From an uncultured Gammaproteobacteria bacterium (lineage in GTDB: Bacteria; Patescibacteriota; Microgenomatia; Levybacterales; GWA1-39-11): a DNA stretch of 64,000 bases. The notes beneath the pieces were generated by a model. That model saw only the letters and a list, made by a program, of their open reading frames with translations. It did no database searches and was not told where the DNA came from. This document shows positions 1 to 58,782 of this stretch, piece after piece. Every line of letters begins with the position of its first letter. Position 1 is the first letter of the stretch. The stretch is from NCBI GenBank assembly GCA_964651815.1, contig CAZYWG010000001.1, forward strand, positions 1,189 to 65,188, in the 5' to 3' direction. The position numbers and the translations under genes are program-made.

Positions 1-1220
1 ATAAAGTTAACAAACTCCTCTAATTCTTTAGATTTTATTTTTTTGCCCAAAAAAAGCGAAGCTACTATATAACCAAAAGAGTGTTTTTTGGAAAATTCCA
101 GAAGATCTTCTCCTAAAACTGTTGGCCTGCCTCCATCATCGCGCGAAATACTTGTAGCAATTAACGCATGGCGCCTGTCATCCATATTTTCAATTATATC
201 TTTTTTTACGGGATTTTTCTTATTTGTCTGTTTTATATACGTGTCTGGTTTACTTATTTTAATTGCCCCCGGAGTTGCACGTATATATTCAATAAAGTCG
301 GAGAAACTCTCTGCCACTGAAACTCGTGCTGTACGAAGCGCATCCCGTTTTGCGCGTGCTGTCTCTTTTTGGCTTGATGCCATGGCTTTTGCATGACCAA
401 ATTGGGGAGAGGTAGGAAACATCTCAGCAACTGTGCCGGCTATATAACAAATAATTTTTTTAGTTAATTTTCCCGTTTGGATAAGTTCTATAACATCATA
501 TTCGTCAGTCCCTCCGAGCTCCCCAAAATAAACTATAGCCGAAGTTTCCGGATCATTTTCAGCTGCTAAAAATGCGTCGAGTGGCGTTGTTGCAGGATAT
601 CTGTCACCTCCAAAAGAAAGAGAAAAGGAAAGCCTTTTTCCAAGAGAAGTCACAATATTTATTATTTCATTTGTCATACCACCCGATGCAGAAAGAACCG
701 CAATAGAACCTTGTTCAAAAACTTTTGCCATTACAAGTTGTTTGTGATCAACCCCACCAATTGCCCCTATTTTTATTTTTGAAGGAAGAAGAAGCCCAAC
801 GCTTGCAGGACCGATTAAAAAAACATTCTTATCTTTAGCGAATTCACGGAGAGAAAGCGCGTGTTTTTCCGGAACATTTTCAGCAAAAACTACACCACCA
901 ATTAGCGCAGGTAATTTATCCATCGCCTCAATTGATGAAGTTAAAACACGTCTGCCGGAAGACAAATTCAAAAAATATGTTATTTGCGAAAGTTTATCTT
1001 CTGAAACATTTTCAAATGAAGAGTAAACAGGAATTAAAATTTCGCGTCTTCCAAAAAAATATCTTTCAAATTTACGGCCGGTTGCAATAATCCCTTTGAT
1101 ACTTGGTGTTTCTTTTCCTGAAGAGAAATCAAAATCAAGAATAGATTGAATAATTGTTGGATATGATCCTAGTGTTAAAACGTTGGTTTGTGATTTTCTG
1201 ATTTTTTGAATATCGAGCAT
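1..1220 (-). CDS. aclA: ATP-citrate lyase large-subunit-like protein (CoA-binding / phospho-His domain). N-terminus at 1220; C-terminal part continues off the left edge.
   Basis: I translated the minus strand from the ATG at 1218-1220 with no stop to the window edge. Motifs match ACLY/AclA: QSILDFDF, REILIPV, IGPASVG..KIGAIGG, GGDRYP, and the phospho-His motif FGHAKA...ETA.AK..AL. It is not in the ORF track because it runs off the edge. The track ORF at 88..396(+) is its antisense shadow. Confidence 0.75.
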   Translation of the reverse strand, partial: MLDIQKIRKSQTNVLTLGSYPTIIQSILDFDFSSGKETPSIKGIIATGRKFERYFFGRREILIPVYSSFENVSEDKLSQITYFLNLSSGRRVLTSSIEAMDKLPALIGGVVFAENVPEKHALSLREFAKDKNVFLIGPASVGLLLPSKIKIGAIGGVDHKQLVMAKVFEQGSIAVLSASGGMTNEIINIVTSLGKRLSFSLSFGGDRYPATTPLDAFLAAENDPETSAIVYFGELGGTDEYDVIELIQTGKLTKKIICYIAGTVAEMFPTSPQFGHAKAMASSQKETARAKRDALRTARVSVAESFSDFIEYIRATPGAIKISKPDTYIKQTNKKNPVKKDIIENMDDRRHALIATSISRDDGGRPTVLGEDLLEFSKKHSFGYIVASLFLGKKIKSKELEEFVNF

Positions 1221-1221
1221 A

Positions 1222-2424
1222 TTATTTATTTAGAGCTTTTGTAACAATATCTGTTAATACAAGTTCCGGACCAAATACTTCTCCGCCAATTCCATTTTCC
1301 TGCATGAATTTTTTTATCATTTTCAAACCGTCTTCCTGGTGTGGTCCGCCGCGTCTTACATAAATCTTGACGCCTTGCTCCTTCAATGTATCTTTAAATT
1401 GTTCAAGTGCACGAATCAATCCACGGAAAGTTATTCGAACATCTGTAAAGTTTGCAACCCCACCACCTATTATTAAAACCTTGTCAGCTGCATGCGAATT
1501 AACAAGTAGACTCAGTATATTTTTGGTATAAAGTAATGTTTCTTCTTCATTAGGATTTCCGGAGTATTCACCATAATTGGCGAGTTTTGGACCAAAATCA
1601 AGGTTATAAACTTCATCTGCTAATACAACGCTCGCTCCGCCGCCTGACAGTAACATAAAAATCGAGCCTTCAGGATTTAAAACTACCAATTTAAATGACG
1701 CTTGCGACTTTTCAGATAAGTTTTGAACGTTTATTTCTTCTGTTGATTTATGAGTTGGTGTCGACCCGGATGAAATCATGGGAGCTTCTCTAAAATCTCG
1801 CGAGCTCCAATTGTCAACAAAAAATTCCGCGGCGGAATCAATTTCTGCTGCAATATCAAGCATATAAGGTTTTTTAAAAGAAATGACAAGTGGATTAATT
1901 TCCAAAAAGGAAAAATAATTTATATCAAATGCTTCTATGATTTTCTCTAAAATATCTGGATTTAAATCTATTTCTATCGCAATTTTTTTAACGTCCTCTG
2001 CATCTTTTATTAATTCACTTTTTACTTCTGACGCATGGTCTTCAATATCAACCCCGCCTTTTTTTGAATATGAAATAACTGTTCCGAGACTGGTCCTTGC
2101 AAGTGCTAGATATCTTTCTTCGTCGTCCGTATGTGGAATAAACTCTTCAATAAGAAAATGGCTGTACCCTTTTTTAATCCAACCAGAAATTGCATTAATC
2201 ATTTTGTCTGCCCTGGAAACATCGAGCAATACCAAACCTTGTTTAAACCGCCTCTTTACACCCTGATCAACCTTGACAACATAGCGACTTTCAGGCCTGA
2301 TAGATTCCTCAATCTTTGCTATGGAATCTTTTTCACCATTGAAAGGAAATCCTGAGTAAGAATTTTTCAAATGATTATTAATTATTGTCTTGGCACGAAA
2401 CTCCGAAAGCTTAACTCTAGGCAT
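1222..2424 (-). CDS. aclB: ATP-citrate lyase small (ATP-grasp) subunit
   Basis: Long collinear similarity to the ACLY N-terminus / Chlorobium AclB: VKVDQGVKRR, FLEINPLV, LDIAAEID, LNPEGSIFMLLSGGGASVV, LANYGEYSGNP, LIIGGGVANFTDV, IYVRRGGP. The stop codon lies 1 nt before the aclA start. Confidence 0.8.
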   Translation of the reverse strand: MPRVKLSEFRAKTIINNHLKNSYSGFPFNGEKDSIAKIEESIRPESRYVVKVDQGVKRRFKQGLVLLDVSRADKMINAISGWIKKGYSHFLIEEFIPHTDDEERYLALARTSLGTVISYSKKGGVDIEDHASEVKSELIKDAEDVKKIAIEIDLNPDILEKIIEAFDINYFSFLEINPLVISFKKPYMLDIAAEIDSAAEFFVDNWSSRDFREAPMISSGSTPTHKSTEEINVQNLSEKSQASFKLVVLNPEGSIFMLLSGGGASVVLADEVYNLDFGPKLANYGEYSGNPNEEETLLYTKNILSLLVNSHAADKVLIIGGGVANFTDVRITFRGLIRALEQFKDTLKEQGVKIYVRRGGPHQEDGLKMIKKFMQENGIGGEVFGPELVLTDIVTKALNK

Positions 2425-2443
2425 ACGACTTCCTTAAAAATAT

Positions 2444-2488
2444 TATGGAGCCCTTAGGAGTCCCGATTTATCGGGACGACATATAGGG
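2444..2488 (+). repeat. Conserved ~45-nt intergenic element, copy 1: ATGGAGcCCTTAG - palindrome GTCCCGATTTATCGGGAC - GACATATAGGG
   Basis: Near-identical flanks to the copy at 8098-8142. The central perfect palindrome differs between copies. Both copies read as 13-codon ATG...TAG mini-ORFs. Confidence 0.4.
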
Positions 2489-2614
2489 TTCAGTTTTTAG
2501 TATACAGCATTCAGTATTTAGTATCGAGTATTCGGAAGATTTTAAAAATTCAGCAGGAAATGTTAAATTTGTAACTTTGTTACGAGTCCTGGTTTTTATC
2601 GATACGGTGCAATC

Positions 2615-3409
2615 TTAAACCTCGATTTTGGTAAAATCCTGCGGAATTATAACTTCGCAATCTACAATATCTTTAATTGTTTTTATCATCTCGTCTTCCC
2701 GACCTTCGCAGTCAGGATACATGTGAGTCAAAACTACTTTTTTAAAGTTGCCGAGTTTTGCAAGCTTACCAACTTCAGAAGGTCCTAGATGTGACTCCGA
2801 ACGGTTATCAGGATACGAGCATTCCAAAATCGCAAGGTCTGCATTTTTCCCGAGCTCGCAAATCCGTTCATCATATCCCATGTCCCCTGAGTAAACTATC
2901 GACTTTCCCTCAAAATCGAGTCTGTAACTAACGCTACTTGCAAAATGCTTAATTGGAGAAGCCGTTACTTTCCAACCATTTTCTTCAAAAATCGAATCCT
3001 CCCCAATTTCATTTATTTTAAAAAGCTCCGGTTTTTTAATTTCATAATTTGGATCAACTAATTTTTCTATATTTAAAAGTGTTTTAAAAATTTCATTTAT
3101 CCCATTAGGCCCAATTATATTTAAAGTCGAACTATCCTTTTCATCTTTTGCAGCAACTTTTCTGGTCTGCATAAGCTGCATTAAATCAGCAAAGTGGTCT
3201 ATATGAAAGTGGGAAATAAAAACGTGGGTTGGTTTTTTAACAATATCGGTTCCTTCCTCAAGCATTTTGTGGAGTACTCCCAAACCAATGTCGAAAAGTA
3301 AAGAATTTGAACCCGCTTCTACATACCACCCGGTAAAAGACCTAAAGATTTTACCCTCAATTTTTGGTGATGGAGTAGACGATCCAGTCCCGTAAAAAGT
3401 TATCTGCAC
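2615..3409 (-). CDS. MBL-fold metallo-hydrolase, probable ribonuclease Z (tRNA 3' processing)
   Basis: HFHIDH (HxHxDH) motif, FYGTGSSTP N-terminus and VYSGDMGYDE..LTHM. The architecture is collinear with short-form RNase Z. Confidence 0.55.
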   Translation of the reverse strand: MQITFYGTGSSTPSPKIEGKIFRSFTGWYVEAGSNSLLFDIGLGVLHKMLEEGTDIVKKPTHVFISHFHIDHFADLMQLMQTRKVAAKDEKDSSTLNIIGPNGINEIFKTLLNIEKLVDPNYEIKKPELFKINEIGEDSIFEENGWKVTASPIKHFASSVSYRLDFEGKSIVYSGDMGYDERICELGKNADLAILECSYPDNRSESHLGPSEVGKLAKLGNFKKVVLTHMYPDCEGREDEMIKTIKDIVDCEVIIPQDFTKIEV

Positions 3410-3473
3410 AAAATATATTTTAACAGATTAGTTTGGGTTGATGTGGAGTATGAAAATGAAAAAAGGTCACGAA

Positions 3474-5621
3474 TTACTGCGCGCTAATTCTACCGGTGAA
3501 TGTGCTTTTGGCAAGCATGGCTTGCACTATGTTGTTGGGGACCTCTTCATAGTGGCTAGGTTCCATATAATAGGTAGCTCTGCCTTGAGACATGGACCTT
3601 AAGGTAGTTGCGTAGCCTGAAAGCTCCTCAAGCGGAACCATAGCCAGAATAATACGCGCATTACCTCTTTCTTCACTGCCCGAAATTTGAGCACGTTTTG
3701 CGGAAAGATCACCAATTACATCTCCCATAAATTCTTCTGGAGTTGTAACTTCAACTTTCATGATTGGCTCAAGAAGCTTCATCTCTGCCTTTTTACTTGC
3801 GGCCTGTAATGCCATAGATGCCGCAATTTTAAAAGCAATATCAGACGAATCAACATCGTGATATGATCCATCATAAACGGTTACTTTCATATCTACTACC
3901 GGGTATCCAAGAAGCATCCCTTTTTCTAAAGTTTCTTTAACACCTTTCTCAATAGACCCGATAAATTCAGAAGGAATTGCTCCACCTTTAATTGCATTAA
4001 CAAATTCAAAACCTTCACCTCTTGGCTGAGGAGTTATTCTTAGCAAACAGTGTCCATATTGTCCATGACCCCCCGTTTGCTTAATGTATTTACCTTCTCC
4101 TGTTGTTTCAATTCCAATTGTTTCTTTATACGCAACCTGCGGCGCTCCCACATTTGCACCTACATTAAATTCTCTCTTCATGCGGTCTACCATAATTTCG
4201 AGCTGAAGTTCTCCAACTCCTGAAATTATTGTCTGGTTTGTCTCATGATTTGTTTTGACACTAAATGTAGGATCTTCTTCCATAAGTCTTTTCAAAGCCA
4301 TACCCATTTTTTCCTGGTCTGATTTTGTTTTTGGTTCAATAGCTAAAGAAATGACGGGCTCGGGGAATGTTATTTTTTCAAGAACAATGGGTTTTGCCTG
4401 GTCACAAATTGTGTCTCCAGTTATAGTATCTTTAAGACCAACTACAGCAACAATTTCTCCGGCGTACGCTTCTGTGATTTCTTCTCTTTGATTTGAATGC
4501 ATAAGAAGTAGCCGACCCACACGCTCTTTTACGTCTCTTGTTGAATTATATGCGTATGACCCTGATACCAATTTTCCGGAATAAATTCTGACGAACGTGA
4601 TTTTTCCAACGTGAGTATCAATTTGGACTTTAAATGCAAAACCGGTAAATGCTTCATCAGGAACGAGCTTTCTAACTTCTTCAGCATTCGTCTTTGGATT
4701 AATTCCTTTTACTTCACCCAAATCTGCAGGGGACGGAAGATAATCAACAACAGCATCAAGTAATGGTTGAACACCTTTGTTTCTTAGCGAAGTACCTGCA
4801 TAAATTGGAACTAATTTGTAACCAACAACAGCGGCTCTTAATCCTTGCTTTAATTCTTCATTTGAAATTTCTTCATTGTTTAAATATTTTTCCAAAAGAT
4901 TGTCATTATTTTCTGCAATTTTCTCAATCATTTTATGTCTATACTCTTCAACCTGTGCTTTCATGTCCGCAGGAATTTCATCAGACACATCATATGTTGC
5001 ACCAAGTTCTTCACCGCTCCATGTAAGCGATTTCATGTTAAGTAAATCAACTACGCCTTTGAAGTCGTTTTCCGCACCAATTGGTAGAACCATAATGCAA
5101 GGGTTTGCTCCGAGCCTATCTTCGATTGATTTAACAGTCTTCAAAAAGTCAGCGCCGAGTTTGTCCATTTTGTTGATGAAACAAATTCTTGGGACATGAT
5201 ATTTGTCAGCTTGTCTCCAAACAGTCTCAGATTGCGATTGAACTCCTTCTTCCGCATCCAAAACAGTTACAGCTCCATCAAGAACTCTTAGTGAACGCTC
5301 AACCTCTGCCGTAAAATCAACGTGCCCCGGGGTATCAATTAAGTTTATGCGGTATGGGACATCTTGTCCTTCAGATCTACCCAAAGGCGAATGAGTCCAA
5401 AAGGTTGTGGTTGCAGCAGATACAATTGTTATTCCGCGTTCTCTTTCCTGATCCATCCAGTCCATGACGGTATTTCCCTCATCGATGTCACCTATTTTGT
5501 AGGATTTTCCAGTGTAATAAAGGATTCTTTCAGAAGTCGTGGTCTTACCCGCATCAATGTGCGCAATAATTCCGATATTGCGGATCTTGTCTAAAGGTAC
5601 TTGTCGTGATGTATCAGCCAT
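3474..5621 (-). CDS. fusA: Translation elongation factor G
   Basis: [39 protein letters not shown]-domain followed by full EF-G domains. The track ORF extends to 5669 via an upstream TTG. The ATG at 5619-5621 matches the EF-G N-terminus. Confidence 0.93.
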
Positions 5622-5707
5622 ATTTAAAAAAATTCGTCCGACGAATCGAACGTAAATGTATTTTACCAAAAAATAGCTGAACCTGCAACGACTTTATGGA
5701 AAGTGAA

Positions 5708-6635: not shown

Positions 6636-7034
6636 GTGGCTATGAGTATGGAACAAAAACAAGCGTCATTTTTTGATCTGAGTCCCGAAAATGTTCAAGC
6701 AGAAGGACAACGTCTTTTGGGTTTAATTGGGTTAGAGGAAAATCCAACCATTTTTATATCTAATTTACTTTCGAATTGGAGAGATGTTCAAATAATCGGG
6801 CAGGGATATAAAGAAGTAATAAAGGAACCACAAGAGAATGTACCTGGAACCATACTTCCTATAAATAAGGTCCTTGAAATTTACCCCTACAATGATGACC
6901 AATTAAGAAAAATTGCAAAAAAACTAGGTTCGGAAAAAGTAAAAGGAAAGTGGCAAATTAACTTAGACGATTTAGCAGAATATGCAAACGGAAATCATCG
7001 AAGAAAACCGAGACAAAAAAGATTACATGTATAA
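6636..7034 (+). CDS. Hypothetical small protein. Weak excisionase/MerR-like HTH resemblance at the C-terminus (KGKWQINLDDLAEY).
   Basis: ORF only. Overlaps the first ATG of the next gene. Confidence 0.3.
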   Translation: MAMSMEQKQASFFDLSPENVQAEGQRLLGLIGLEENPTIFISNLLSNWRDVQIIGQGYKEVIKEPQENVPGTILPINKVLEIYPYNDDQLRKIAKKLGSEKVKGKWQINLDDLAEYANGNHRRKPRQKRLHV

Positions 7035-8097
7035 GAATAGAATTTCTAAACTTAGAGGGTCGTTTGATAAAGAAAAAATTGATGCGTTTCTAGTTTCATC
7101 AGCTTTAAATATTCATTATTTAACAGGCTATTCTAACTTTTCGAAGGACGAGCGAGAAGCTTATTTATTTATCACCGAATCGACTGCGACGCTTTTTACA
7201 GATTCGCGATACATTGAAGCAGTTGAAAAAATAATTCCATCAAATGTGAAAGCGACAATTGAAAAACCACTTAAAACTCTTGGTCAAATAGTTAAAGATT
7301 TAAAAATAAATAGGATTGGTTTTGAGACAAATTTTACAGTATACGAACTTGAGAAATTCAAAAAAGAAATTTCTTCAAAATTTGTTTTGTCTGATGATTT
7401 GGTAGAAAAACTTCGGGAAATAAAAGACGTTGATGAAATTAGGGCGCTAAAAAAAGCCGCAGCTTTAACGGATATAACTTATTCTCATGTTCTCGAGAAT
7501 ATAAGAATGAAAATTAATGTTACAGAGAAAGAATTGGCGTGGCGAATGGAAAAATTCATAAAAGAAAACGGAGGAACTCTGGCCTTTGATTCAATTGTAG
7601 CGTTTGGTGCAAATTCCTCGATTCCACATCACATAACATCCAGCAAAAAATTATCAGTCAAAGATGAATTTATATTACTAGACTTTGGTGCAAAAATCGA
7701 CGAATATTGTAGCGATATGACAAGAACTTTACTTACAAAAAGCTCGTCAACCCGCGCGAAGAAAGTTTACCAAGCGGTTCTTGATGCACAAAAAAAGGCA
7801 GCCGACTCAATAATTGTGAATAAAAAAGGTAACGCTGCAAATGCTGCAAAAATTGCAAACGCCGTTCTTGTCTCAAAGGGATTTAAACCTGTCCCTCACG
7901 GCTTAGGCCACGGGATTGGACTTGAGGTTCATGAGAAGCCGCATCTACATCCAAAATTTGATGATATTCTAGTGAATGGAATGGTTTTTTCAATAGAGCC
8001 TGGAATTTATATCCCGGGTTTTGGTGGCGTAAGAATTGAGGATGATTATTTATTAAACAATAATGAAATCAAACAGATTACGACATCCTTAAAATAA
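7027..8097 (+). CDS. Xaa-Pro aminopeptidase / M24 family metallopeptidase
   Basis: M24 pita-bread motifs: DFGAKIDEYCSDMTRT, HGLGHGIGLEVHEKP, IEPGIYIPGFGGVRIED. Start could be 6982. Confidence 0.8.
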   Translation: MYKNRISKLRGSFDKEKIDAFLVSSALNIHYLTGYSNFSKDEREAYLFITESTATLFTDSRYIEAVEKIIPSNVKATIEKPLKTLGQIVKDLKINRIGFETNFTVYELEKFKKEISSKFVLSDDLVEKLREIKDVDEIRALKKAAALTDITYSHVLENIRMKINVTEKELAWRMEKFIKENGGTLAFDSIVAFGANSSIPHHITSSKKLSVKDEFILLDFGAKIDEYCSDMTRTLLTKSSSTRAKKVYQAVLDAQKKAADSIIVNKKGNAANAAKIANAVLVSKGFKPVPHGLGHGIGLEVHEKPHLHPKFDDILVNGMVFSIEPGIYIPGFGGVRIEDDYLLNNNEIKQITTSLK

Positions 8098-9595: not shown

Positions 9596-11092
9596 ATGAA
9601 TTTATTGATACAAAAGCTTTTGTCTTTTGAATTTTATAAGAAAAACTACTTTATAGTTTCAGTTTTTTTAATTCTTGCGCTTGCCACATTTTTAAGGTTT
9701 TATAATTTTGGTAATCGTTACGCATTGGCCGGAGACCCGGCACGGGACGCAATAATCGCAAGATACGCTCTGGAAAATCATAGAATACCCGCAACCGGCC
9801 CTTTTTCTTCCGCAGGAAATTTTACAACGGGTAACATCTGGTACATCTGGCTTATTTTATCTTCTGCAATTTATCCCTTCTCAATTTTGACACCTTGGAT
9901 TGTTATGGCGGCGTCTTACGTTTTTATAGTTTTCATGATGATTTTAATTGGGTATGAACTCCTTGATAAAAAGTTTGGAATAATACTTGGACTATTGAGC
10001 GCGGTTTCTTTTGCTCAAATTAACCAAAGCCTGAATCTGGCTAACCCCTCACTTGTTGCTCTTTTTTCAACACTTGCCATATATTTTTTAATAAAGTATG
10101 TAAAAACTGGAAAAAATCTTTTTGCTTTTTTGTTTTCATTGTTTATTGCGATTGCAATTAATACTCATTTTCAGGCAATGTATCTATTAGTTTTAATTCC
10201 ACTTGCGTATATCTTTAAGCGTCCAAAACCTATATATCTTATATCCGCGGCATTTGGATTAACAATTCCTTTTATTCCTTTTGTAATTTTTGATGTGAAA
10301 AATAACTTCTATAATTTTCGCGGAATAATAGATTACCTGCAATATGGACAGTATAAAATTTATGTCGCAAACAGATGGTTTACTTATGCAGGCATTTTTT
10401 GGCCACAACTTTGGAGTAGTATTGTTGGAGGGATTCCGCTTTTAGGTTATTTTACAATATTTCTTTTAATTTTTGCGGTTTTAAAAAATGCAGTCAAAAG
10501 AAAATTAAACAAAGAAATAATTTTACTTATTCTCTCATTTGCTGTGATGTTTTTTGCTTTAAGATATTACCGTGGTGAGCGCTTTTTTGGCTACTTTGTT
10601 TTTCTCCACCCATTCATAATTACTCTTTCCGGTTTTGCTTATTACGCCGTTTTTAAAATGAACAAAATACTGGGAGTTATTTTAATCACAATACTTGTCT
10701 TAATTAGTATAAATAGAACACTTCCGTCTTTATTACAGGGACCGGGCGACGCGCAGGTAAGATCTACCGCCTGGGAAAAATTATTTTCAGAAGTTTACCC
10801 AGGGAAAAAATTTCAACTCTATAGTTACATAAGTACATCTGAAGGCATAACTTTACCTCTGGCTCTCTACTTATATAGAGATGGTAGACTTTCAGATACG
10901 GGATATAAAATTGGGTTTGGAAGCACCGACTTGAAAGAAAGACCGCATTTTAAAATGGTTAAAGATATAAAATTGGGATTTGAGATTTGGGATTTAAACA
11001 GTTCAACTTCTGCGCAATTAAGAAAATCAGATTGGCATAGCGTTAACCCAAGCGCGGTTTACAAAATTTCAGCCGACTGGTACGATAAGTAA
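9596..11092 (+). CDS. Polytopic membrane protein, GT-C-fold glycosyltransferase-like (ArnT/PMT family)
   Basis: About 12 predicted TM segments. N-terminal loop ALAGDPARDAIIARYALENHRIP resembles the GT-C catalytic loop. Confidence 0.45.
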   Translation: MNLLIQKLLSFEFYKKNYFIVSVFLILALATFLRFYNFGNRYALAGDPARDAIIARYALENHRIPATGPFSSAGNFTTGNIWYIWLILSSAIYPFSILTPWIVMAASYVFIVFMMILIGYELLDKKFGIILGLLSAVSFAQINQSLNLANPSLVALFSTLAIYFLIKYVKTGKNLFAFLFSLFIAIAINTHFQAMYLLVLIPLAYIFKRPKPIYLISAAFGLTIPFIPFVIFDVKNNFYNFRGIIDYLQYGQYKIYVANRWFTYAGIFWPQLWSSIVGGIPLLGYFTIFLLIFAVLKNAVKRKLNKEIILLILSFAVMFFALRYYRGERFFGYFVFLHPFIITLSGFAYYAVFKMNKILGVILITILVLISINRTLPSLLQGPGDAQVRSTAWEKLFSEVYPGKKFQLYSYISTSEGITLPLALYLYRDGRLSDTGYKIGFGSTDLKERPHFKMVKDIKLGFEIWDLNSSTSAQLRKSDWHSVNPSAVYKISADWYDK

Positions 11093-11096
11093 TAAC

Positions 11097-12008
11097 CTAA
11101 GCTTTTGCAAAATATATGTTTACGTACTCCGGTGCTTCTCCATCAACGGTAGAGCTCACAATCTCAAGTATTATTGGCCAATGTGTGTTGCCGGGATATA
11201 ACACACGAGAATTTAAATGAACCCCAATATCCGCAAATGTTGTTTTACCATTTCCACCAGGTGTCGCTAATACGTGTAATATTGCATGAGTATTTCCTCT
11301 TAATGTCATTTCAGATTCCGTTTCTCCAATCCAAAGCTTTTGTGAAGAGGATTTTGGCGCTTCATTTAAATACTGTTTTATCTCTTCTCTAAAATTACGG
11401 CCCATATCACTTATCTGTATAGGTCCTTTTTGTTGATCAGAGGGAATCCATTTTCTATCTTTTGAAATCCGCATTTTTACACCTAATATGCTATTTGATC
11501 TGTTATCTCGAATAAAATCCCAGTTTTCATCAGGGCCTGGATCCCCACTGATAACAATATCCTCATTATCAAAAGCTTTTTGTAAATCTCCATTAACAAG
11601 TCTCGCACCATGATCATAATAAAGCTTAAACAAACCGCTACCCTCATCTAACCTAACGCTTCTTAAAGAATAATTGCTAACATGAGCAACTGCCTCAACC
11701 ATTCCGTCTAGTCTAATCTGTGAGTTTAACAAATCCGAAATTTGAAGACCTTGAGCATCAACTTCAAGTCCTAGTTGAGCATATCTACTTCTTGGGGACG
11801 TTTGTAACTTAGATATTGAACCTTTGGGATTATCTTTTAAAAAAGTCTGTAAAAAAGATGCAGGAATTGAAATGGGGGTAGGAATAGGTTTTTTAGTTAA
11901 AGGAGGAACTTCAAGACCCAAAGAAAGTCTAATATCAGGACTTACACCAAAATGAGCTTCAGGATTAGTTGTGAGAGTTTCTCTCGCCATGGGATGTGAT
12001 TTTACCAA
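11097..12008 (-). CDS. Hypothetical protein (no family recognised)
   Basis: 303-aa ORF between rpsG and the GT-C gene. An alternative start exists at the internal Met (11990). Confidence 0.45.
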   Translation of the reverse strand: MVKSHPMARETLTTNPEAHFGVSPDIRLSLGLEVPPLTKKPIPTPISIPASFLQTFLKDNPKGSISKLQTSPRSRYAQLGLEVDAQGLQISDLLNSQIRLDGMVEAVAHVSNYSLRSVRLDEGSGLFKLYYDHGARLVNGDLQKAFDNEDIVISGDPGPDENWDFIRDNRSNSILGVKMRISKDRKWIPSDQQKGPIQISDMGRNFREEIKQYLNEAPKSSSQKLWIGETESEMTLRGNTHAILHVLATPGGNGKTTFADIGVHLNSRVLYPGNTHWPIILEIVSSTVDGEAPEYVNIYFAKA

Positions 12009-21316: not shown

Positions 21317-22594
21317 CTATTTCTCTATAGTAAAAATTGGAAAAAGATCTAGGGAGTCGTGGGCTTCATGTAGTCTATATTCACTGTCGCTATACATCAT
21401 ATACAATTCATCATCGTGTCCAACCTTATCTCCCAATCTTTTGTATAAAAATAGTCCGGCGCGATGATCTTCAGGAGCGCCGAGAATCCTTGCAACTGTC
21501 GTAATATTTTTGCTGGAAATTTTTGTAACCTTACCCGTTAATAAAGTTTTCCTTACAAGTCGGTGTTTTCCAGGCAACATACCTTTTGACGTTACATTTT
21601 CATCTCCTCCTTGAGCCTTCACAATCTCCCTAAATTTGGTAAGAGCTTGACCACTTGTCAGTAAATCCTTTGCCCACGCCTTTGTGTCTTTATATTTTTT
21701 TTGGAATTCGTCTTTTATTTTTTGTGAAGAATCAACAAGACACAGCTCTAAAAGCTTGGCAGATGCGTCAATACTTAAATCTTCTAGTGCGAGTGGCCTA
21801 TCTTCAGTTTGCTCTAACACTTTTAGTGAGTCGCGTGCTTCAAGGAGAGGACCTACCCCATTTCCCGCAGGTTCTTCCATTCTGTGAATAATCGCTTCAA
21901 CTTTTATCCCAAAGCGGCCTCCGAGATATTCAAATTTTTTCTTAAGAACGGCAGCTTCTTCTTCTCTGTGAATTTTGACAGTTGTTCCATATGGCAAATC
22001 AATTACAACGTGCGTTGCTCCAAAAGCAACTTTTTTTGCCATGACCGACACAACTATTTTGTCATAGCTTTCAAATACAAGCGGCTCTTCAATTTTTATA
22101 ATATCGTCGTCAGCCGGTGCAATCTTAAAACTCCCACCCCAAACAATACATGCACCCACTTTTTTTACAATTTCATAAATTTCTTCTTTTGTGAAGGTTA
22201 CATTAGAAAGAACCTCCATGCAGTCTGCCGTTCCGGCTGGCGTTGTAATTGCACGTGAAGAACTCTTTGGGATTTTAAAACCGGCGGCAGCAATTATTGG
22301 GACGAGAATAAGTGTGACACGAGTTCCGGGAACTCCACCTATTGAATGTTTATCTGCGACTAGCCCTGAAAACTCAAGCTTTTCCCCAGTCTCAACCATT
22401 GCTTTTGTAAGGAAATATAATTCTTCATCAGAAAATCCTTCAGAATATCCGGATGCTACAAAATATGTGGTCAAAATATCGCCCAGCTTATCTTGCGATA
22501 TTTGATCCATAATCGCATATATCTCGCGATATGATAGCTTTTTTCCAACTAATTTTTTGCGTATTGCTTCAAGAGCTAAAGTTTTCTCATCCAT
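21317..22594 (-). CDS. deoA: Thymidine / pyrimidine-nucleoside phosphorylase family protein (possible AMP phosphorylase role)
   Basis: DKHSIGGVPG and TTPAGTADCMEVL glycosyl-transferase family 3 motifs. 425 aa. Confidence 0.8.
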   Translation of the reverse strand: MDEKTLALEAIRKKLVGKKLSYREIYAIMDQISQDKLGDILTTYFVASGYSEGFSDEELYFLTKAMVETGEKLEFSGLVADKHSIGGVPGTRVTLILVPIIAAAGFKIPKSSSRAITTPAGTADCMEVLSNVTFTKEEIYEIVKKVGACIVWGGSFKIAPADDDIIKIEEPLVFESYDKIVVSVMAKKVAFGATHVVIDLPYGTTVKIHREEEAAVLKKKFEYLGGRFGIKVEAIIHRMEEPAGNGVGPLLEARDSLKVLEQTEDRPLALEDLSIDASAKLLELCLVDSSQKIKDEFQKKYKDTKAWAKDLLTSGQALTKFREIVKAQGGDENVTSKGMLPGKHRLVRKTLLTGKVTKISSKNITTVARILGAPEDHRAGLFLYKRLGDKVGHDDELYMMYSDSEYRLHEAHDSLDLFPIFTIEK

Positions 22595-22701: not shown

Positions 22702-22962
22702 TTATACTTCCTTTCCCAAAATCATCCTGAATGCGGATCCTACAACAGACTTTATAATTTTCATTGTCCAATAAAGTATTGCGCTAAAAACTTTGATAAT
22801 TGCAGGCTCTACTGCAGAAAAATAATATTTAATTCTTCCCCATGCGCTTTTTAGCTTATAATTTTTAATCTCATCTTCATTCATTCCAAAATCACTCGAA
22901 CTATTAGGTAGATCTTCTTGAACTGGTGTTAAATTATTATTTAAATTGCTTTGTTCTTCCAT
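22702..22962 (-). CDS. Hypothetical small protein
   Basis: ORF only, last gene of the sortase operon. Confidence 0.3.
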   Translation of the reverse strand: MEEQSNLNNNLTPVQEDLPNSSSDFGMNEDEIKNYKLKSAWGRIKYYFSAVEPAIIKVFSAILYWTMKIIKSVVGSAFRMILGKEV

Positions 22963-23711
22963 AAATACGTTGTCTTATCTGCAACCTGTTGCAAAGCCGC
23001 CCTTACAATAAGCCGTTTCCATATTGTACCTGGCGGCGTACAGGTAACTATTGTTATATATGAATTATCAAAACTCTGCGAAAGCATATTGGTGTCATCA
23101 GGAGAGGTAATAATAATTGAGAAGATTTTATATTTATAAGTTGCATCGGCAACTGTTGCATCAATTTCGTCGCCAATTTTAATTGTATGAAGAGTAGCAA
23201 AAATTGCTTTGTAATTATGCTGGTCAAACCAGGCGGGAATTGTTGAATGTCCAAAAATAACGGCCGTTCCTTTTTCTCCCGGGATAGAAGTACCAAGATA
23301 TTGAACCAGATGGTGATCCAGATCATAGTCGGTTGTTGAAACTCTCGCACTTTCTATTCCTAGTTTTGGAATAGATAAAAGATATGATGAAATTTTCACT
23401 TTTTTCTGAGAAGTTATATTTGTAGTAAGACTTGGGTACCAATTACGGGCGTCTGTGTAATCATGAGTTAAAGAATTTATTCCCTGCGTAAGCAAACTTC
23501 CAAACCCGGAGTCTCCTGAAATTACCATATATTTTGGGATAGGTGCCTCAATTCCAGCAGATGCGTATGCATTTCCTAAAAAAAGCTGGTATGAGATTAT
23601 AGGGAAGAAAAAATAAGCAAACATACCCATTCCTAAAATAATTAAAAAAAGTCCAAGCATTTTCTTGCGTTTAAATCCTAACGTTTTGCGTTTTATATAA
23701 TAGGTAGACAT
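22941..23711 (-). CDS. Sortase (transpeptidase)
   Basis: N-terminal TM helix, LSIPKLGIESARV, GTAVIFGHS, and the catalytic TLxTC-type motif SYITIVTCTPPG. Confidence 0.75.
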   Translation of the reverse strand: MSTYYIKRKTLGFKRKKMLGLFLIILGMGMFAYFFFPIISYQLFLGNAYASAGIEAPIPKYMVISGDSGFGSLLTQGINSLTHDYTDARNWYPSLTTNITSQKKVKISSYLLSIPKLGIESARVSTTDYDLDHHLVQYLGTSIPGEKGTAVIFGHSTIPAWFDQHNYKAIFATLHTIKIGDEIDATVADATYKYKIFSIIITSPDDTNMLSQSFDNSYITIVTCTPPGTIWKRLIVRAALQQVADKTTYLWKNKAI

Positions 23712-23715
23712 TGGT

Positions 23716-26013
23716 TTACTCTTTGACTTCTATATTTATATTTTTAGGGTTTAAGGGCAAGATGGCAGGGAGGAACGGAATTTTATTAGAAAATGAAATG
23801 TTCACGTCGGTTACGCCGGTTATACTCCTGATCTTATTTTGGGATGATTTTTCCGACTTTCCACCTAAACTCGCTGCAAGCTGACTAGGATCAATTTGTG
23901 GTACATAAACAGCATGGACTTTAAGAGTTGCCGTGGCGCTTGACCCGTCTTTAGAAATTTTTATATTATTTACGTCTGTTGTTGAATCGCCTTTGCGCAA
24001 AACGTAAGTGCCAGGTACTTGGCTCTTTGACAGATTTTCTACAAAGTTACTTAAATCCGATTTATTGTACTCCCCTATACTGTATTTAATAGTTGCAGAA
24101 ATCCCAACGCTTCCTGCTTGATCATTAACTTTTTTAGTATAACTTTTATCACTCACGTCTTGAGTTAAACTCTTTGGGAAAATTTCTGTATCAGTACTGG
24201 CTCCTGATTTTGCTTTTGACATAGCATCACTTTCAAGTGAAGAAATTACTTGAGCGAGCAAATCGTCGATATCTTTTTGTGAAACAACTGTAGAGGTTGT
24301 TTTTGTACCTCCGCTTATTGCGCTGCCATTTTTCCCTATGAAATCTGAAGAAGAAAAACCTTTGACAGTGAAATTAGAACCTGAGGGAAGATTGTATTCT
24401 TTGCCAAAATTTGACGCTTCTACTTTTCCGTCCGCAGAAGAAAGGGATGTTGCAAAAGAACTAGTGGATGCGATTTTTACGTCATTTAAAAGCTGGAATT
24501 CAAGATTATTTGGACCAACTAAAATTGTACCTTTTGAAAATGACTTATCACCCTCATTTTTATTATAAATTGTAATGGATCCTTTTGCGTGGTCTCCGGT
24601 ATCTTTTGTCCCTGAGGAATTTTTTGTTTCCGAACCATTTACTTCTTCGCTTGTAGCGCTGAGTTTTATAGCATTGTCCCCTGTTGGGTTTTGAGAAAAT
24701 GAAATATCCTGGGATTTATCAATAGCTTTTTTATCAGTGAAAATTACAACCGTTGCATGCAGCAAATAGTTAACGTATACAAACAGAAATAATACTATGA
24801 CAACAATAACTATGACCAAACCTGCTATTAATTTAGGACGTCCCGCTGACGTATTATTTAAAAATGGTAGACTTGGGAAAGAGAAACTTGGAATTTTCAA
24901 CTTTTTAAAGTTAATGCCGGAAAAAACGTTTCCTATATTTATGGGAAATTGCGATTTTGAAGTCGTTTGAAAATCGCCCTCTATCTCACTTTGGCCGGGG
25001 GTATCTCCCTCTTGAAAATAGGATATCTCGGGCTCCTCCTTCTTACCCCGCGGACTTTTGGCTGAAATGGCGGCTTTGACACTTTCTGTTTCATTTAAAA
25101 TATCTTCACTACTTTCTTCCGGCAACTTTTCTAAATTTTCTAGTTTTTTGGCTTTTTCAATTGCAACGTCTGAATCTTTTGCAAAACCAAATTCCTGAGC
25201 ACTTGCTTCTTCCAGTACATCTTCCGGAACTACTTCTTCCTCAACAGTTTTAACGTTTGCCAAAACCTCTAGCTCCATTTGTGATGCTACTCCGTTGATC
25301 GTTGCTTCATTTTCAAAACCTTTTTCAAGCGTTACGACTTGTGGAACATGAAGAAAAGGGATATCCCTTGGCCATTTGTGTGACAAGAATTGCTGCTGAA
25401 TTGATTCTCCGCCATCATAATCTGCCAAAATTATTTTTGATGGAAGAACATCTACGCTTTCAAGCTTTTTTAACAAAGTTTCAGAAGACGTCATAATATT
25501 ATCCGAAACTGACTCGTTTGCCATCTCCAAAATTTTTCCTCCTCTGACCAAATACGCATACATATGTCTTTTTGCAATTTCAAGAAATATTGCCGATACA
25601 GGGGCTCCTTCATTTTTTTCAATAAAGTGGACAATTGCTTCAATTGATGTGAGAAAGCCAACGGGGACAAGCCCTAAATCCTGGCAAACTTTTTTTAGAT
25701 TATCCAAATATTGTTTTTGGATTTTTCCATCCACTACCCAGTCGTATGGAACAGAAAAAATAGTTTTTTCTACTGTTCCGTCTGCTGGAAGGCTCGTTTC
25801 AACAAAGCTAATTGCGCGGTCACTGGCATGAAGCAAATCCTCTGCTGATAAGTCATCTGTATCTTTTGATGTTTCAACTTCGTGACTTGCGAGAATAAAA
25901 AGTTTGTCGTTTATTTCTTCAAATAAAATCGCTCCAACTTTATAGGGTTTGAAAAGGAGTGCAAGAAAAAAATTCTTCTTCTCCTCACTTTTTTTTAGGA
26001 AAGGCAGTTGCAT
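23716..26013 (-). CDS. Bitopic membrane protein. N-terminal cytoplasmic domain has weak FtsA/PilM-like actin-fold resemblance, then one TM helix and a large Ser/Thr-rich extracellular domain.
   Basis: TM helix LIAGLVIVIVVIVLFLFVYV near residue 390. N-terminal DLGLVPVGFLTSIEAIVHF...YAYLVRGGKIL resembles the FtsA 2A subdomain but the ATP-binding Gly loop is degenerate. Stop lies 4 nt before the sortase start. Confidence 0.55.
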   Translation of the reverse strand: MQLPFLKKSEEKKNFFLALLFKPYKVGAILFEEINDKLFILASHEVETSKDTDDLSAEDLLHASDRAISFVETSLPADGTVEKTIFSVPYDWVVDGKIQKQYLDNLKKVCQDLGLVPVGFLTSIEAIVHFIEKNEGAPVSAIFLEIAKRHMYAYLVRGGKILEMANESVSDNIMTSSETLLKKLESVDVLPSKIILADYDGGESIQQQFLSHKWPRDIPFLHVPQVVTLEKGFENEATINGVASQMELEVLANVKTVEEEVVPEDVLEEASAQEFGFAKDSDVAIEKAKKLENLEKLPEESSEDILNETESVKAAISAKSPRGKKEEPEISYFQEGDTPGQSEIEGDFQTTSKSQFPINIGNVFSGINFKKLKIPSFSFPSLPFLNNTSAGRPKLIAGLVIVIVVIVLFLFVYVNYLLHATVVIFTDKKAIDKSQDISFSQNPTGDNAIKLSATSEEVNGSETKNSSGTKDTGDHAKGSITIYNKNEGDKSFSKGTILVGPNNLEFQLLNDVKIASTSSFATSLSSADGKVEASNFGKEYNLPSGSNFTVKGFSSSDFIGKNGSAISGGTKTTSTVVSQKDIDDLLAQVISSLESDAMSKAKSGASTDTEIFPKSLTQDVSDKSYTKKVNDQAGSVGISATIKYSIGEYNKSDLSNFVENLSKSQVPGTYVLRKGDSTTDVNNIKISKDGSSATATLKVHAVYVPQIDPSQLAASLGGKSEKSSQNKIRSITGVTDVNISFSNKIPFLPAILPLNPKNINIEVKE

Positions 26014-27984: not shown

Positions 27985-29493
27985 ATGGCAAACACAAGAA
28001 AAAAAAATATTGGATCAACTGTTACTTCTCGTGTTTCGAGTTTCTACTCGCAAACTTCAAGCAGAATAAAAGACCTGAATACTCGACAAAGAAGCAAAGT
28101 AATATGGCGGAAAACAACCGTGTTTGTCCAAAAAAGACCGATGGCAAGTTTTTTCATCGCGCTTTTTATTCTCTTCTTGGCAATAGTTCTCAACTCTGTA
28201 ATTTCCCCAAAACCCAAAGAAACTACAACTCTTCCACCTGTAAAAGAGGTCACAGTTTATAAGGTGGGGGTTGCACCAAGAGTAAGTATATCGGCAAAAG
28301 TTAAAAAAGCAGGTGTAATTCAAATTGTGGCACAAACCCCAGGTATTGTTTCCGCCATCAATGTGGTTGAGGGACAAACTGTCACACGCGGAACCAATCT
28401 TTTAAGTCTTGCCAATAACTACCAGGGTGGTAACGCGTTTTCAGTCCAGCGGCAAATTGCTGCAGATCAATACCAAAATGTGCAGGATACTTATGATGCC
28501 CAAAAAGACTCTATTGGAAAGCAAATGCAAATTGCCGATGCAAATAAAAATAATTCCGACATGATGCGCAGCCTTATTAACCAATCTATTTCCGACACTC
28601 AAGGTTTAATAGATTTTAATGACAATATTTTATCAACTCTCAATGCAAATCTTAAAAATCTTGAAGACTCAAATAACAATGGCTCAAATGATTCGGCGAT
28701 TCTTGCTCTCAAAGGTCAAATAGCACAGGTTGGTGCGGCGGTGGCTCAATTGAATATTTCAAACCGCCAAGCTCGTTTTCAATCGGATACAGCAAATCCT
28801 CCAACTCAACTAGCTGACTTTCAACACGACTTGGCAGTCAGGCAATTTCAAATTCAGCAAAAAATGCTTGATCTAGGAAGGGAAACAAGTCGGCTGGGAC
28901 TTGCCCTCGCGCAAATAAATGAAGCCACTATGTATCCTTCTGCCCCTTTTGATGGGGTTATTGAACGCGTGCATGCAGTTGTGGGACAATCAGTGGCACC
29001 TGGGACACCCCTTGTTACAATTTCCGGAACAAACAAGAAAACAACTGTTATTGCATATGTCCCTCGGGATATCGCCGAAAAAGTTTCAAAGATTGAATCA
29101 AGCAGGATTTATGTTGGCAAAAAAGTTTATGAAGCACTCCCGGATTATGTTTCAACAGAAGCAACAGACGGTTTACTTAACGTAATTATTTACACATTAC
29201 CCGATGACGCTACTTCTCTCCTGACAGATAGTTCTTATATAAGAATAGAAGTCCCCGTTGGGTACGCAGATACCATGTCTACTATTCCTCAGATTCCAAT
29301 AGATAATGTTTTTCAGACGCAAGATGGTGCTTTTACTTATGTCACAGAAAATGGGAAAGCGGTCGCAAGAAGAATTGAGCTAGGGGACGTCCTTGGAAGT
29401 TTTGTGACTGTAGAAAAAGGGCTCAAGGCGGGTGATCACGTTATTCTCGATAGAAATATTGTAGCAGGTGATCAAATCCACGTTAATAACTAA
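27985..29493 (+). CDS. RND efflux periplasmic adaptor (membrane fusion protein, HlyD-like)
   Basis: N-terminal TM helix, coiled-coil Q/N-rich hairpin region and beta-barrel C-terminus. Immediately precedes the RND pump gene. Confidence 0.7.
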   Translation: MANTRKKNIGSTVTSRVSSFYSQTSSRIKDLNTRQRSKVIWRKTTVFVQKRPMASFFIALFILFLAIVLNSVISPKPKETTTLPPVKEVTVYKVGVAPRVSISAKVKKAGVIQIVAQTPGIVSAINVVEGQTVTRGTNLLSLANNYQGGNAFSVQRQIAADQYQNVQDTYDAQKDSIGKQMQIADANKNNSDMMRSLINQSISDTQGLIDFNDNILSTLNANLKNLEDSNNNGSNDSAILALKGQIAQVGAAVAQLNISNRQARFQSDTANPPTQLADFQHDLAVRQFQIQQKMLDLGRETSRLGLALAQINEATMYPSAPFDGVIERVHAVVGQSVAPGTPLVTISGTNKKTTVIAYVPRDIAEKVSKIESSRIYVGKKVYEALPDYVSTEATDGLLNVIIYTLPDDATSLLTDSSYIRIEVPVGYADTMSTIPQIPIDNVFQTQDGAFTYVTENGKAVARRIELGDVLGSFVTVEKGLKAGDHVILDRNIVAGDQIHVNN

Positions 29494-29496
29494 ACT

Positions 29497-32400: not shown

Positions 32401-32871
32401 ATGCTTTTATCCTTCTTGCTCATTATTGTAACAATGGTACTTCAGTTTTCATCATTCAGACGCGCATTAATAGTTATGTTGGTAATACCACTTTCTATTT
32501 CGGGTGTTTTTATAATTTTTGCGCTCACCGGAACACCACTTTCTTTTCCAGCTCTTATTGGGGTTCTTGCTCTTTTTGGAATAGTTGTAAAAAATTCAAT
32601 ACTTATTGTGGATAAAATTTTGGAGAATCAAAAACACAATATGACCTTTATTGAATCTATAAGTTCGGCTTCAGCTTCTAGACTTGAACCCATTGCCTTG
32701 ACTACTTTTGCGACAATATTGGGACTTACACCAATTACGCTTACCGACCCATTATGGCGAGGTTTAGGAGGCGCAATTATTGCAGGGCTTGTGTTTTCAG
32801 GAGCTATAATGCTCTTCTTTATTCCTGTTGTGTACTTCAGTTGGTTCAATCAAAAACCAACGAGAAAATAA
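29497..32871 (+). CDS. RND family efflux transporter permease (AcrB/MMPL-like)
   Basis: 1124 aa with 12-TM pseudo-symmetric architecture. N-terminal ASLPRELNPTINIPIVLVSTVLPGASPADVESLVT matches AcrB. Confidence 0.85.
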   Translation: MAAQDRTGLFRFLKFDPNLRKSLFAKYLANPRLVILLLFSVILIGAYSYASLPRELNPTINIPIVLVSTVLPGASPADVESLVTVPIEDSINSLEKVKTVSSTSQDNVSIVTVEFQSGTDPDKAKNDVKSAVDGVSTLPTDALAPQVLKLDFQNAPVWTFVLTTSADDGSLFKFAKNLQKKVEDLPEIDKVDIAGLEDTEVQITINPESYAAYNVNPIQLSSIITSSLKSFPAGSVRTENSTFSLTIDPQATTVDDLRNLQIALPGPAAQTVALSDIATIVDRPKPSQGQSFIAYPHGKVGRAVTFAVHKTSATNINTAVTSAKRLVDSEVKNTSGVFRAVTLINTQDEIDKQFRDLTRDFLITVILVVLVLFIFLGPRQALVSSLSAPLSFLITFIVMKQSGITLNFLSLFSLILSLGLLVDDTVVVISAVSAYHKTNRFSPYETGLLVWRDFLTPVFTTTVTTVWAFLPLLLSTGIIGEFIKSIPIVVSTALAGSFIVAMFITLPLTVIFLRPQIPERVTKLIKILAAIILVAILWSVIPKGKLFIVEIIALIVFIFVIYSLRSYRTVIKQRVAEYFVPKNHRQVSFRTKIIRNIFGRDYSEGVISFDKINAAYKQTIEKILSSGHNRRMVITMVIIFSLFSFLLLPLGLVKNEFFPKTDQNIVYLTLELPAGTQIGDTKKEALKVLTDLKNTNGIKFASLDLGQSIGNNGGTQGAGDNNALFSLNLLDAGKRRESTEIADSLRTKFANYQKGRLNVVEESGGPPAGADLQIKLLGDDLSILGKKADEVAAYLEKQPGVTNVDKSVKSGTSKLAFVPDKSLLAQQNIGYDQLGLWLRLYASGFKVASHKFPGDNKDRDVTLRLYPESAFANRLDQVILPLQAGGNIPLSSLGKLNLEENPTIITREDGKRTISVTAAVKRGFNVQDKNKSLESFANTKLALPEGYSWKTGGVNEENANSVQSILSAMLLSFLLIIVTMVLQFSSFRRALIVMLVIPLSISGVFIIFALTGTPLSFPALIGVLALFGIVVKNSILIVDKILENQKHNMTFIESISSASASRLEPIALTTFATILGLTPITLTDPLWRGLGGAIIAGLVFSGAIMLFFIPVVYFSWFNQKPTRK

Positions 32872-52222: not shown

Positions 52223-52373
52223 TTTTCTTAATTGTTGATTATCAATTCCTGCCTATGGAAACTGTATTTTTTGCGCCTAAAAATAAATATAATTTTTTCT
52301 CCACGAATTATTCCCAGTTTTTCAATTTGAGATCCGATCGAAACTTTTTAATGGTTCGGATGTAGGGAAGGAG

Positions 52374-52970: not shown

Positions 52971-53090
52971 TCACAAGATTAGTCAGAATAGAATAGGGCG
53001 CAGAGAGCCCTTAGAAGTGAGAGAAAACCTCTTTTCGAGAAATCGGAAGAGGTTTTTTCTTGTTTACCCTGAGTGTGTTTTGAGGCTAAA

Positions 53091-53765: not shown

Positions 53766-53786
53766 TATACGCTTGTTAGGAGGGAA

Positions 53787-54968: not shown

Positions 54969-55045
54969 TATTACTTAATAATATATAAACCCAGAGTGAT
55001 GTAAAGCGTTAAGAAGTTTGTAAGAAACGGGTTTTGAATGGCCGC

Positions 55046-57337: not shown

Positions 57338-57436
57338 TTTATTTTTTACGAACTATTTTTTAATCGAACTCTTATTAATTTCTATATTTTCTATTTACTA
57401 ATAACTATTTACTGTTTCTATGTTGTTCGGAAACTT

Positions 57437-57477
57437 GTAGGGTGTTTTTGTCGAAGTGCTAACAAAAAGCACCCTAC
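57437..57477 (-). promoter_or_regulatory. Strong intercistronic hairpin 17 nt after the stop of the first repeat-protein gene (possible attenuator or processing site)
   Basis: GTAGGGTG-TTTTTG ... CAAAAA-g-CACCCTAC gives a ~14-bp stem with a 12-nt loop. No adjacent U-tract. Confidence 0.35.
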
Positions 57478-57493
57478 CAAGTAATCCTTAAAG

Positions 57494-58753: not shown

Positions 58754-58782
58754 TTAATAATCACCTCCTTTTCGACCAAGAT

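Follow-up and report, generated by a model that had tools for sequence, protein, structure and literature searches.

An ATP-citrate lyase operon inherited in a Levybacteria-like lineage of Patescibacteria and probably employed outside the reductive tricarboxylic acid cycle

The 64-kb stretch of contig CAZYWG010000001.1 analysed here, to which whole stretch we refer as the window, carries at its left edge the genes aclB and aclA for the two subunits of an ATP-citrate lyase (ACL), and comes from a Levybacteria-like bacterium of the Microgenomates, a group within the Patescibacteria or candidate phyla radiation (CPR). By every sequence-level defining feature the two encoded proteins answer to a canonical two-subunit ACL, and we are highly confident of the identity of the enzyme, its completeness, and its status as a resident of this genome, taken together. 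This ACL is almost certainly not there for the fixation of CO2. The fuller reading—that of a genuine and apparently functional AclB plus AclA, inherited in the lineage and acting outside the reductive tricarboxylic acid (rTCA) cycle, with citrate cleavage as its role—we favor with more modest assurance, as the reading that is somewhat better than even.

The identity of the proteins was established by the agreement of domain profiles with comparisons to solved structures. AclB matched the Pfam domains Citrate_synth_N (PF24948; residues 6-204; 105.1 bits, cut-off 83) and Citrate_bind (PF16114; residues 227-399; 208.9 bits, cut-off 26.8), and the part of AclA lying within the window matched Ligase_CoA; whereas the SucC model scored only 34 bits with AclB against a cut-off of 375, and the SucD model 122 bits with AclA against a cut-off of 336. 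Among the solved structures AclB was closest to ACLY-A of Methanosaeta (Methanothrix) concilii (6hxi_A, 226 bits) and to human ACLY (221 bits), followed by AclB of Chlorobium limicola (136 bits) and the citryl-CoA synthetase (CCS) of Hydrogenobacter (52 bits). For the 406 residues of AclA in the window the order was human ACLY (195 bits), M. concilii ACLY-B (183 bits), C. limicola (125 bits), SucD (about 100 bits or less), and Hydrogenobacter CCS (80 bits); and for the complete AclA of 610 residues, M. concilii ACLY-B (367 bits), human ACLY (365 bits), and C. limicola AclA (255 bits). The structures of Hydrogenobacter CCS and of its citryl-CoA lyase (CCL) reached 52, 79, and 71 bits, as compared to the 226 and 367 bits of the ACLs. 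Because the ACL domains scored far above their cut-offs and SucC and SucD far below theirs, and because the best structural matches over the full lengths were ACLs for both proteins, we assign the pair to ACL. The first, sequence-only reading of this DNA had likewise claimed that both subunits are ACL from end to end and not a generic succinyl-CoA synthetase, which claim the comparison with ACL, CCS, and SucCD bears out.

That same reading had remarked that aclA is cut off by the left edge of the window, as is the case, and that the citrate-synthase-like domain needed for lyase activity lay out of sight, which is incorrect inasmuch as the first ~55 residues of that domain (AclA 352-406) are within the window, where they follow the CoA-binding and CoA-ligase domains, with their phospho-histidine loop, and a linker. 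The AclB protein is already present in the NCBI database in its exact sequence (P0001), and an exact-sequence look-up with it led to two contigs, L001 and L002, which stem from independent assemblies of two sequencing runs and both of which reach to the end of aclA. The overlap of L001 with the window comprises 3409 bases and shows 0 mismatches, and L001 carries the gene in full (3289-5121), whose product of 610 aa has Pfam Citrate_synt (PF00285) with 78 bits. Since the citryl-CoA lyase domain is therefore present, and fused to AclA, on an identical contig, the enzyme is a complete ACL.

The residues expected for catalysis and binding, part of which are known from published work on ACL and on citrate synthase, were checked by alignment to human ACLY, and in addition across three related genomes for AclA and 120 homologues for AclB. 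The ACL-specific phospho-histidine region proposed from the sequence alone is indeed present, with H276 in the motif QFGHAKA and E114 in AENVPE. Within the window, AclA E114, G180/G181, and H276 correspond to human E599, G664/G665, and H760; and on L001, H414, H489/R490, R500, D538, R577, and R597 correspond to human H900, H975/R976, R986, D1026, R1065, and R1085. All of these are kept both here and in the three related genomes. In AclB, K51, R59, E103, G261-263, and G289 correspond to human K58, R66, E118, G281-283, and G309, and N325, F326, T327, R357, and R358 to human N346, F347, T348, R378, and R379. These positions were invariant in 120 of the 120 homologues except for E103, which is glutamate in 118 and aspartate in 2; and the citrate-binding set G289, N325, T327, and R358, along with the mobile F326 (human F347), is complete. 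The roles of the catalytic and binding residues of ACL are those described in PMC10115795. Neither the open reading frames (ORFs) nor the residue check gave any sign of a pseudogene or pseudo-enzyme in aclB or aclA, and AclBA would appear to be functional as an ATP-citrate lyase.

On the basis of family knowledge and of this residue conservation, the reaction may be pictured as follows. ATP bound in the ATP-grasp domain of AclB would phosphorylate His276 of AclA, and the phosphate would pass to citrate held by the citrate-binding loops of AclB (G289, N325, T327, R358), after which the attack of CoA would give (3S)-citryl-CoA. The cleavage of that intermediate to acetyl-CoA and oxaloacetate would require AclA Glu114 and the C-terminal citrate-synthase-homology (CSH) domain with H414, H489/R490, D538, R577, and R597.

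Of the characterized systems, the ACLY-A/ACLY-B pair of M. concilii (6HXI/6ZNW) scores highest among the solved structures with either subunit at full length and shows the same two-gene layout and domain order, with ATP-grasp and citrate-binding domains in one chain and CoA-binding, ligase-CoA, and fused citrate-synthase-homology domains in the other. The CPR subunits are nevertheless each about 20 residues shorter (400 vs. 421 and 610 vs. 631 aa), HMMER leaves ~45 residues at the N-terminus of AclB unaligned with the M. concilii protein, and the hosts differ, the one having a reduced bacterial genome and the other being a methanogen. Human ACLY (3MWD, 6HXH, 6UUZ) is nearly as similar and has the same predicted chemistry, but in it the two halves form a single polypeptide and are joined by a regulatory linker, which the enzyme of the window does not have, and its role is to provide acetyl-CoA in the cytosol for making lipids and acetylating histones. 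The classical bacterial rTCA enzyme, AclBA of C. limicola (6HXJ), likewise has two subunits, which agree in domain content with those of the window and are encoded in the same aclB-aclA order, but is clearly more distant and works in a complete rTCA cycle, for which the window provides no evidence. Hydrogenobacter thermophilus, finally, distributes the same overall chemistry over two enzymes made of homologous domains, CCS and CCL (6HXQ, 6HXP), with low similarity to the window proteins and with the lyase as a separate protein, whereas here the lyase is fused to AclA.

A further arrangement was observed among deeper relatives of the window aclBA: at L010:8001-10960 and L012:8001-11376 the ACL-like proteins are encoded in three genes, for an AclB-like protein (398 and 388 aa, respectively), a Ligase_CoA subunit (315 and 320 aa), and a separate Citrate_synt-like protein (272 and 270 aa). 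Although that layout resembles CCS/CCL, the L010 proteins are ACL-like, and far closer to the human and M. concilii ACLs than to the Hydrogenobacter CCS/CCL; the lyase protein scored 192 bits with the human CSH domain vs. 68 with the Hydrogenobacter CCL, and the small subunit 191 bits with human ACLY vs. 74 with CCS. The three-gene form could have arisen by a later splitting of the gene, or it could be left over from the fusion that gave rise to AclA.

What such an enzyme might accomplish in this cell has to be judged from the genomic surroundings and from what is reported of related organisms. The related Pacebacteria are described as being without a TCA cycle and unable to make either acetyl-CoA or oxaloacetate (PMC6064768), from which description a need for a supply of both can be argued. 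In a fermentative, host-dependent cell of that kind, citrate taken from the environment or from a host would be cleaved to acetyl-CoA and oxaloacetate, the former of which could feed acetylation reactions (UDP-GlcNAc, cell-wall precursors) or the recovery of ATP via acetate formation, and the latter the synthesis of aspartate, malate, or pyruvate. We infer in which direction the reaction runs in vivo, where the citrate originates, and what becomes of the products. In four relatives (L005, L006, L008, L013) aclBA abuts murB; and in another lineage (L011, P0132; 4977-13627) it adjoins a gene for an MBOAT-family acyltransferase, with a heliorhodopsin gene 3 kb away. These adjacencies are compatible, if weakly, with a use of acetyl-CoA for cell-envelope precursors.

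Several considerations weigh against this picture of citrate cleavage. The 64 kb in view belong to a contig of ~194 kb, so that partners, a citrate transporter, or rTCA genes could lie elsewhere, and no citrate transporter or acetyl-CoA-consuming enzyme linked to the operon was found in the window. The expenditure of ATP for each citrate cleaved is costly for a fermenter, and the classic citrate fermenters use an ATP-independent citrate lyase. A neighborhood of housekeeping genes, moreover, says little about function; and, as regards descent, the deep phylogeny considered below is weakly supported, with an ancient horizontal origin of the CPR ACL being possible.

The main rival, which we consider unlikely, is that the enzyme runs in reverse, converting acetyl-CoA, oxaloacetate, ADP, and Pi to citrate, CoA, and ATP, and thereby providing either substrate-level phosphorylation or citrate for the synthesis of 2-oxoglutarate and glutamate. 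That direction is chemically possible, a fermenter with few ATP-making routes would gain from it, and Desulfobacter postgatei is said to use ACL oxidatively to make ATP. The reverse reaction, however, would need independent sources of acetyl-CoA and oxaloacetate, which the related Microgenomates of PMC6064768 are described as being without, and neither aconitase nor isocitrate dehydrogenase was found in the window or in the sequence flanking seven related loci.

A second rival takes the operon at its face value as the key enzyme of an rTCA cycle by means of which the organism would fix CO2, ACL being the classical marker of that cycle and metagenome pipelines counting aclA and aclB among the markers of carbon fixation. 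Among the window ORFs of at least 150 aa, however, we found no 2-oxoglutarate or pyruvate:ferredoxin oxidoreductase, no fumarate reductase, aconitase, isocitrate dehydrogenase, or malate dehydrogenase, and no enzymes of the oxidative TCA cycle; nor did the ~20 kb of sequence surrounding aclBA in L005, L006, L008, and L013 contain other rTCA genes, so that over the window and the flanks of those four syntenic relatives ACL does not co-occur with the remainder of the cycle. The genome, in addition, has CPR-style reduced features, and the Chlorobium rTCA enzyme is the one with the lowest similarity among the solved ACLs. In the passage of PMC9671151 that bears on the matter, citing Probst et al. 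(2017), the Patescibacteria metagenome-assembled genomes (MAGs) with aclAB are stated to be without the other rTCA genes, and the relevant part of PMC12577380 lists aclAB among the genes enriched in Saccharimonadia MAGs. We therefore judge CO2 fixation through this ACL to be very unlikely, and the non-autotrophic role that had been offered as an explanation at the first reading is the best available one.

That CPR genomes can carry ACL while lacking the remainder of the cycle is known already, both from the literature and from NCBI annotations, one relative being labelled 'ATP citrate lyase citrate-binding domain-containing protein [Patescibacteria group bacterium]'. The reports just cited, along with that of Kato et al. 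(2022; MAG mg089), describe, as far as the passages concerned extend, the same pattern of non-autotrophs in which the other rTCA genes are absent, and in those passages aclAB is mentioned in passing only. What is added here is the conserved placement of the operon between fusA and tuf, the check at the level of individual residues, and the congruence with marker genes.

That placement bears on whether aclBA is native to the genome. The composition of aclB and aclA (GC content 0.36-0.37; GC content at third codon positions 0.24-0.27; distance in relative synonymous codon usage 0.27-0.30) is within the spread of rpoB, rpoC, alaS, fusA, and other neighbors, so that the comparison of GC and codon usage, from which a foreign signature might have emerged, points to native genes instead. 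In L005, L006, L008, and L013, in which four genomes AclB is 53-70% identical to that of the window, the operon occupies the same slot within an otherwise highly conserved region of translation genes, in the order rpoC-rpsL-rpsG ... M24 peptidase-fusA-(RNase Z-like)-aclB-aclA-murB ... tuf-rpsJ. For the three relatives with marker data, furthermore, RpoC, S12, S7, AclB, and AclA all yield one and the same ranking by identity, L005 > L006 > L008. Because composition is native, the slot is shared, and the ranking is congruent with the markers, aclBA was present in the common ancestor of the window genome and its syntenic relatives. The horizontal acquisition invoked by the sequence-only reading thus finds no support as a recent event, while remaining tenable as an ancient one.

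Two genes next to the operon, those for EF-G and for an M24 peptidase, break the marker order, with L005 being the most distant relative for both, and the EF-G of the window is 93.6% identical to that of L006. This pattern suggests that the M24-fusA segment underwent homologous exchange among related CPR lineages; the discordant ranking is in any event an oddity of EF-G and the M24 peptidase, and not of ACL.

As to the wider relatives, at least 120 clusters of AclB sequences were found with at least 49% identity to the query, under the names Candidatus Levybacteria, Patescibacteria group, and Candidatus Blackburnbacteria, as well as 'bacterium', 'uncultured bacterium', and one 'Sulfurimonas sp.'; the cluster labels recovered for 20 family representatives were mostly nameless singletons, with 'candidate division WWE3', 'bacterium', and one label cut short after 'Candidatus' also among them. 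The initial expectation that an ACL would be out of place in a genome of this type has consequently to be abandoned, as the clusters with an informative name, apart from the one labelled Sulfurimonas, belong to Levybacteria, Blackburnbacteria, or Patescibacteria, and as the enzyme has been published in Patescibacteria. In a neighbor-joining (NJ) tree of 123 AclB-type sequences, with the human and M. concilii proteins as anchors, the window sequence clustered, away from the anchors, with proteins of ~380-412 aa in a group that has 63 members; the split had a bootstrap of 30/100, for which reason we name neither a donor nor a sister lineage. A candidate for a Chlorobium-type anchor, P0263, was rejected upon proving to be M. 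concilii-like. Since C. limicola was the weakest ACL match for P0263 as well, the circumstance that the window proteins are closer to the archaeal and eukaryotic type than to Chlorobium probably has no bearing on ancestry.

There remains the rival according to which aclBA was acquired recently, or was joined as foreign DNA to a CPR contig by an error of assembly or binning. The patchy distribution of ACL across bacteria, the close homologue labelled Sulfurimonas sp. (P0051), and the exchange that EF-G and the M24 peptidase reveal in this very region all speak in its favor. Against it stand the same junctions in two sequencing runs, assembled independently, with 0 mismatches to the window, the conservation of position in the four other genomes, and the native composition and marker-congruent ranking. 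The P0051 contig, for its part, measures 3.1 kb and carries nothing but aclBA, and the nearest relative of its sequence in the NJ tree is P0044, whose contig has the CPR gene order; for those reasons we rejected that homologue as a pointer to a donor within the Campylobacterota and regard its label as most likely an error of binning. A recent or artefactual origin is accordingly highly improbable. Weakest of all, and scarcely credible, is the proposal that the proteins are a CCS, a succinyl-CoA synthetase, or another ADP-forming acyl-CoA synthetase, for although some JGI annotations label homologues 'succinyl-CoA synthetase beta subunit' and the N-terminal part of AclA does match SucD models, the SucC and SucD scores are far short of their cut-offs, the Hydrogenobacter CCS subunits reach but 52 and 80 bits as opposed to 226 and 367 for ACL, the lyase domain is fused to AclA, and the citrate-binding residues are kept.

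The coordinates of the operon and of the other features discussed are given in Table 1. The 1-nt spacer between aclB and aclA, together with the lack of an evident separate Shine-Dalgarno sequence for aclA upon inspection of the junction, suggests that the two genes may be translationally coupled. In the intergenic region upstream, a ribosome-binding site, AAGGAAG, lies at 2435-2429, 4 nt 5' of the aclB ATG, and the consensus scan gave one promoter-like site at 2566-2539 (TTAACA, a spacer of 16 nt, and TAAAAT). As the scan found 11 such sites vs. 10.7 expected by chance, that call is weak; and, the counts of both promoters and terminators being at the level of chance, we dropped any regulatory claim. 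The MBL-fold gene and fusA (2615..5669) constitute a conserved upstream context outside the enzyme that marks the slot of aclBA in the relatives. We considered the MBL-fold protein as a thioesterase partner of ACL, but rejected that candidate, its NCBIfam match being to an RNase Z-like family and below the cut-off. The EF-G ORF as called has 731 aa with a TTG start, and its N-terminus is ~16-20 residues longer than those of its relatives (702-716 aa); since the alignments with the latter begin at residue 17-21, translation probably starts at Met17, inside the ORF as called (MADTSRQ...).

Table 1. Positions of the ACL operon and of other features in the 64-kb window
Feature	Position	Strand	Evidence or remarks
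aclB, ACL beta subunit, 400 aa, with ATP-grasp and citrate-binding domains	1222..2424	-	Intact ORF, Pfam, structure matches
aclA, N-terminal part, 406 of 610 codons	1..1220 (frame 1220..3)	-	Translation, Pfam Ligase_CoA; gene continues past left edge
aclB-aclA junction (TAA 1224-1222, ATG 1220-1218, 1-nt spacer)	1220..1224	-	Direct sequence reading
Intergenic region 5' of aclB, 190 bp	2425..2614	-	Sequence, consensus scan
RNase Z-like hydrolase of the metallo-beta-lactamase (MBL) fold	3409..2615	-	NCBIfam RNase_Z-like below cut-off; Pfam MBL domains
fusA (EF-G)	5669..3474	-	Translation, alignment to EF-G of related loci, their Pfam labels
M24 peptidase	6982..8097		
ORFs of ~200-765 aa without family match	9596-12008, 23716-26013, 47540-48751, 52322-60119		No Pfam or NCBIfam match
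Archaeal-type AMP/thymidine phosphorylase	21317-22594	-	NCBIfam PRK04350, 448 bits; AMP_phos, 433 bits (below the 535 cut-off)
Sortases	22941-23711, 53091-53765		Gram-positive style
AlaS, 606 aa	26032..27852		
Membrane-fusion protein (HlyD-like, 502 aa) and RND transporter (AcrB family, 1124 aa)	27985-32871	+	
IF-2, 498 aa	48803..50299		

Elsewhere the window contains rpsG, rpsL, rpoC, rpoB, nusA, pnp, the gene for RNase J, and ftsK, in addition to fusA, two sortase genes, and many ORFs without a family match. The small IF-2 and AlaS agree with the reduced translation apparatus, CPR-like or Gram-positive-like, that had been recognized from the sequence at the outset. In the 64 kb the tRNA and Rfam scans yielded neither tRNA genes nor Rfam families at the gathering threshold, and thus no ribosomal-protein leader 5' of rpsL-rpsG-fusA. 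The AMP/thymidine phosphorylase is the first enzyme of a nucleotide-salvage route in those CPR that have a form II/III RuBisCO; no RuBisCO was found in the window. The HlyD/AcrB efflux system is sizeable for a reduced genome otherwise furnished with sortases in the Gram-positive style. The ORFs without family match—among them products of 763, 765, 498, 419, and 393 aa—cluster near the sortase genes and those for Big_7/LTD-domain proteins, and for that reason are probably lineage-specific surface proteins. Just past the left edge of the window and 3' of aclA, L001:5167-5592 encodes a protein of 141 aa with an N-terminal hydrophobic segment and a Cupredoxin_1/plastocyanin-like domain. Since this protein is devoid of cysteine, a classical type-1 copper site is out of the question. 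The relatives have murB in its place.

A bolder proposal, which we put forward as tentative and consider rather unlikely, would combine several of these observations. In Levybacteria-like CPR, ACL would be the sole gateway to acetyl-CoA and oxaloacetate, fed by host citrate as a currency between the CPR cell and its host; its expression might resemble that of housekeeping genes, given the location of aclBA after fusA in the conserved rpoBC-rpsLG-fusA-tuf region; and the group with an AclB of ~390 aa, with its three-gene forms in L010 and L012, may retain intermediates of the fusion of CCS and CCL into ACL.

Surveys of metagenomes routinely score the genes aclA and aclB as markers of CO2 fixation, and the present locus illustrates why that practice is unsafe: ACL is complete and its catalytic residues are intact across more than 100 CPR sequence clusters, yet this type of genome is reported to be without the rest of the cycle. 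The value of the finding consists mainly in annotation hygiene, in that matches to aclA and aclB are not to be read as carbon fixation, and in a testable hypothesis, for if it were true that ACL is the only source of acetyl-CoA and oxaloacetate in these cells, citrate would probably be a host-derived metabolite and, as such, a handle for their cultivation.

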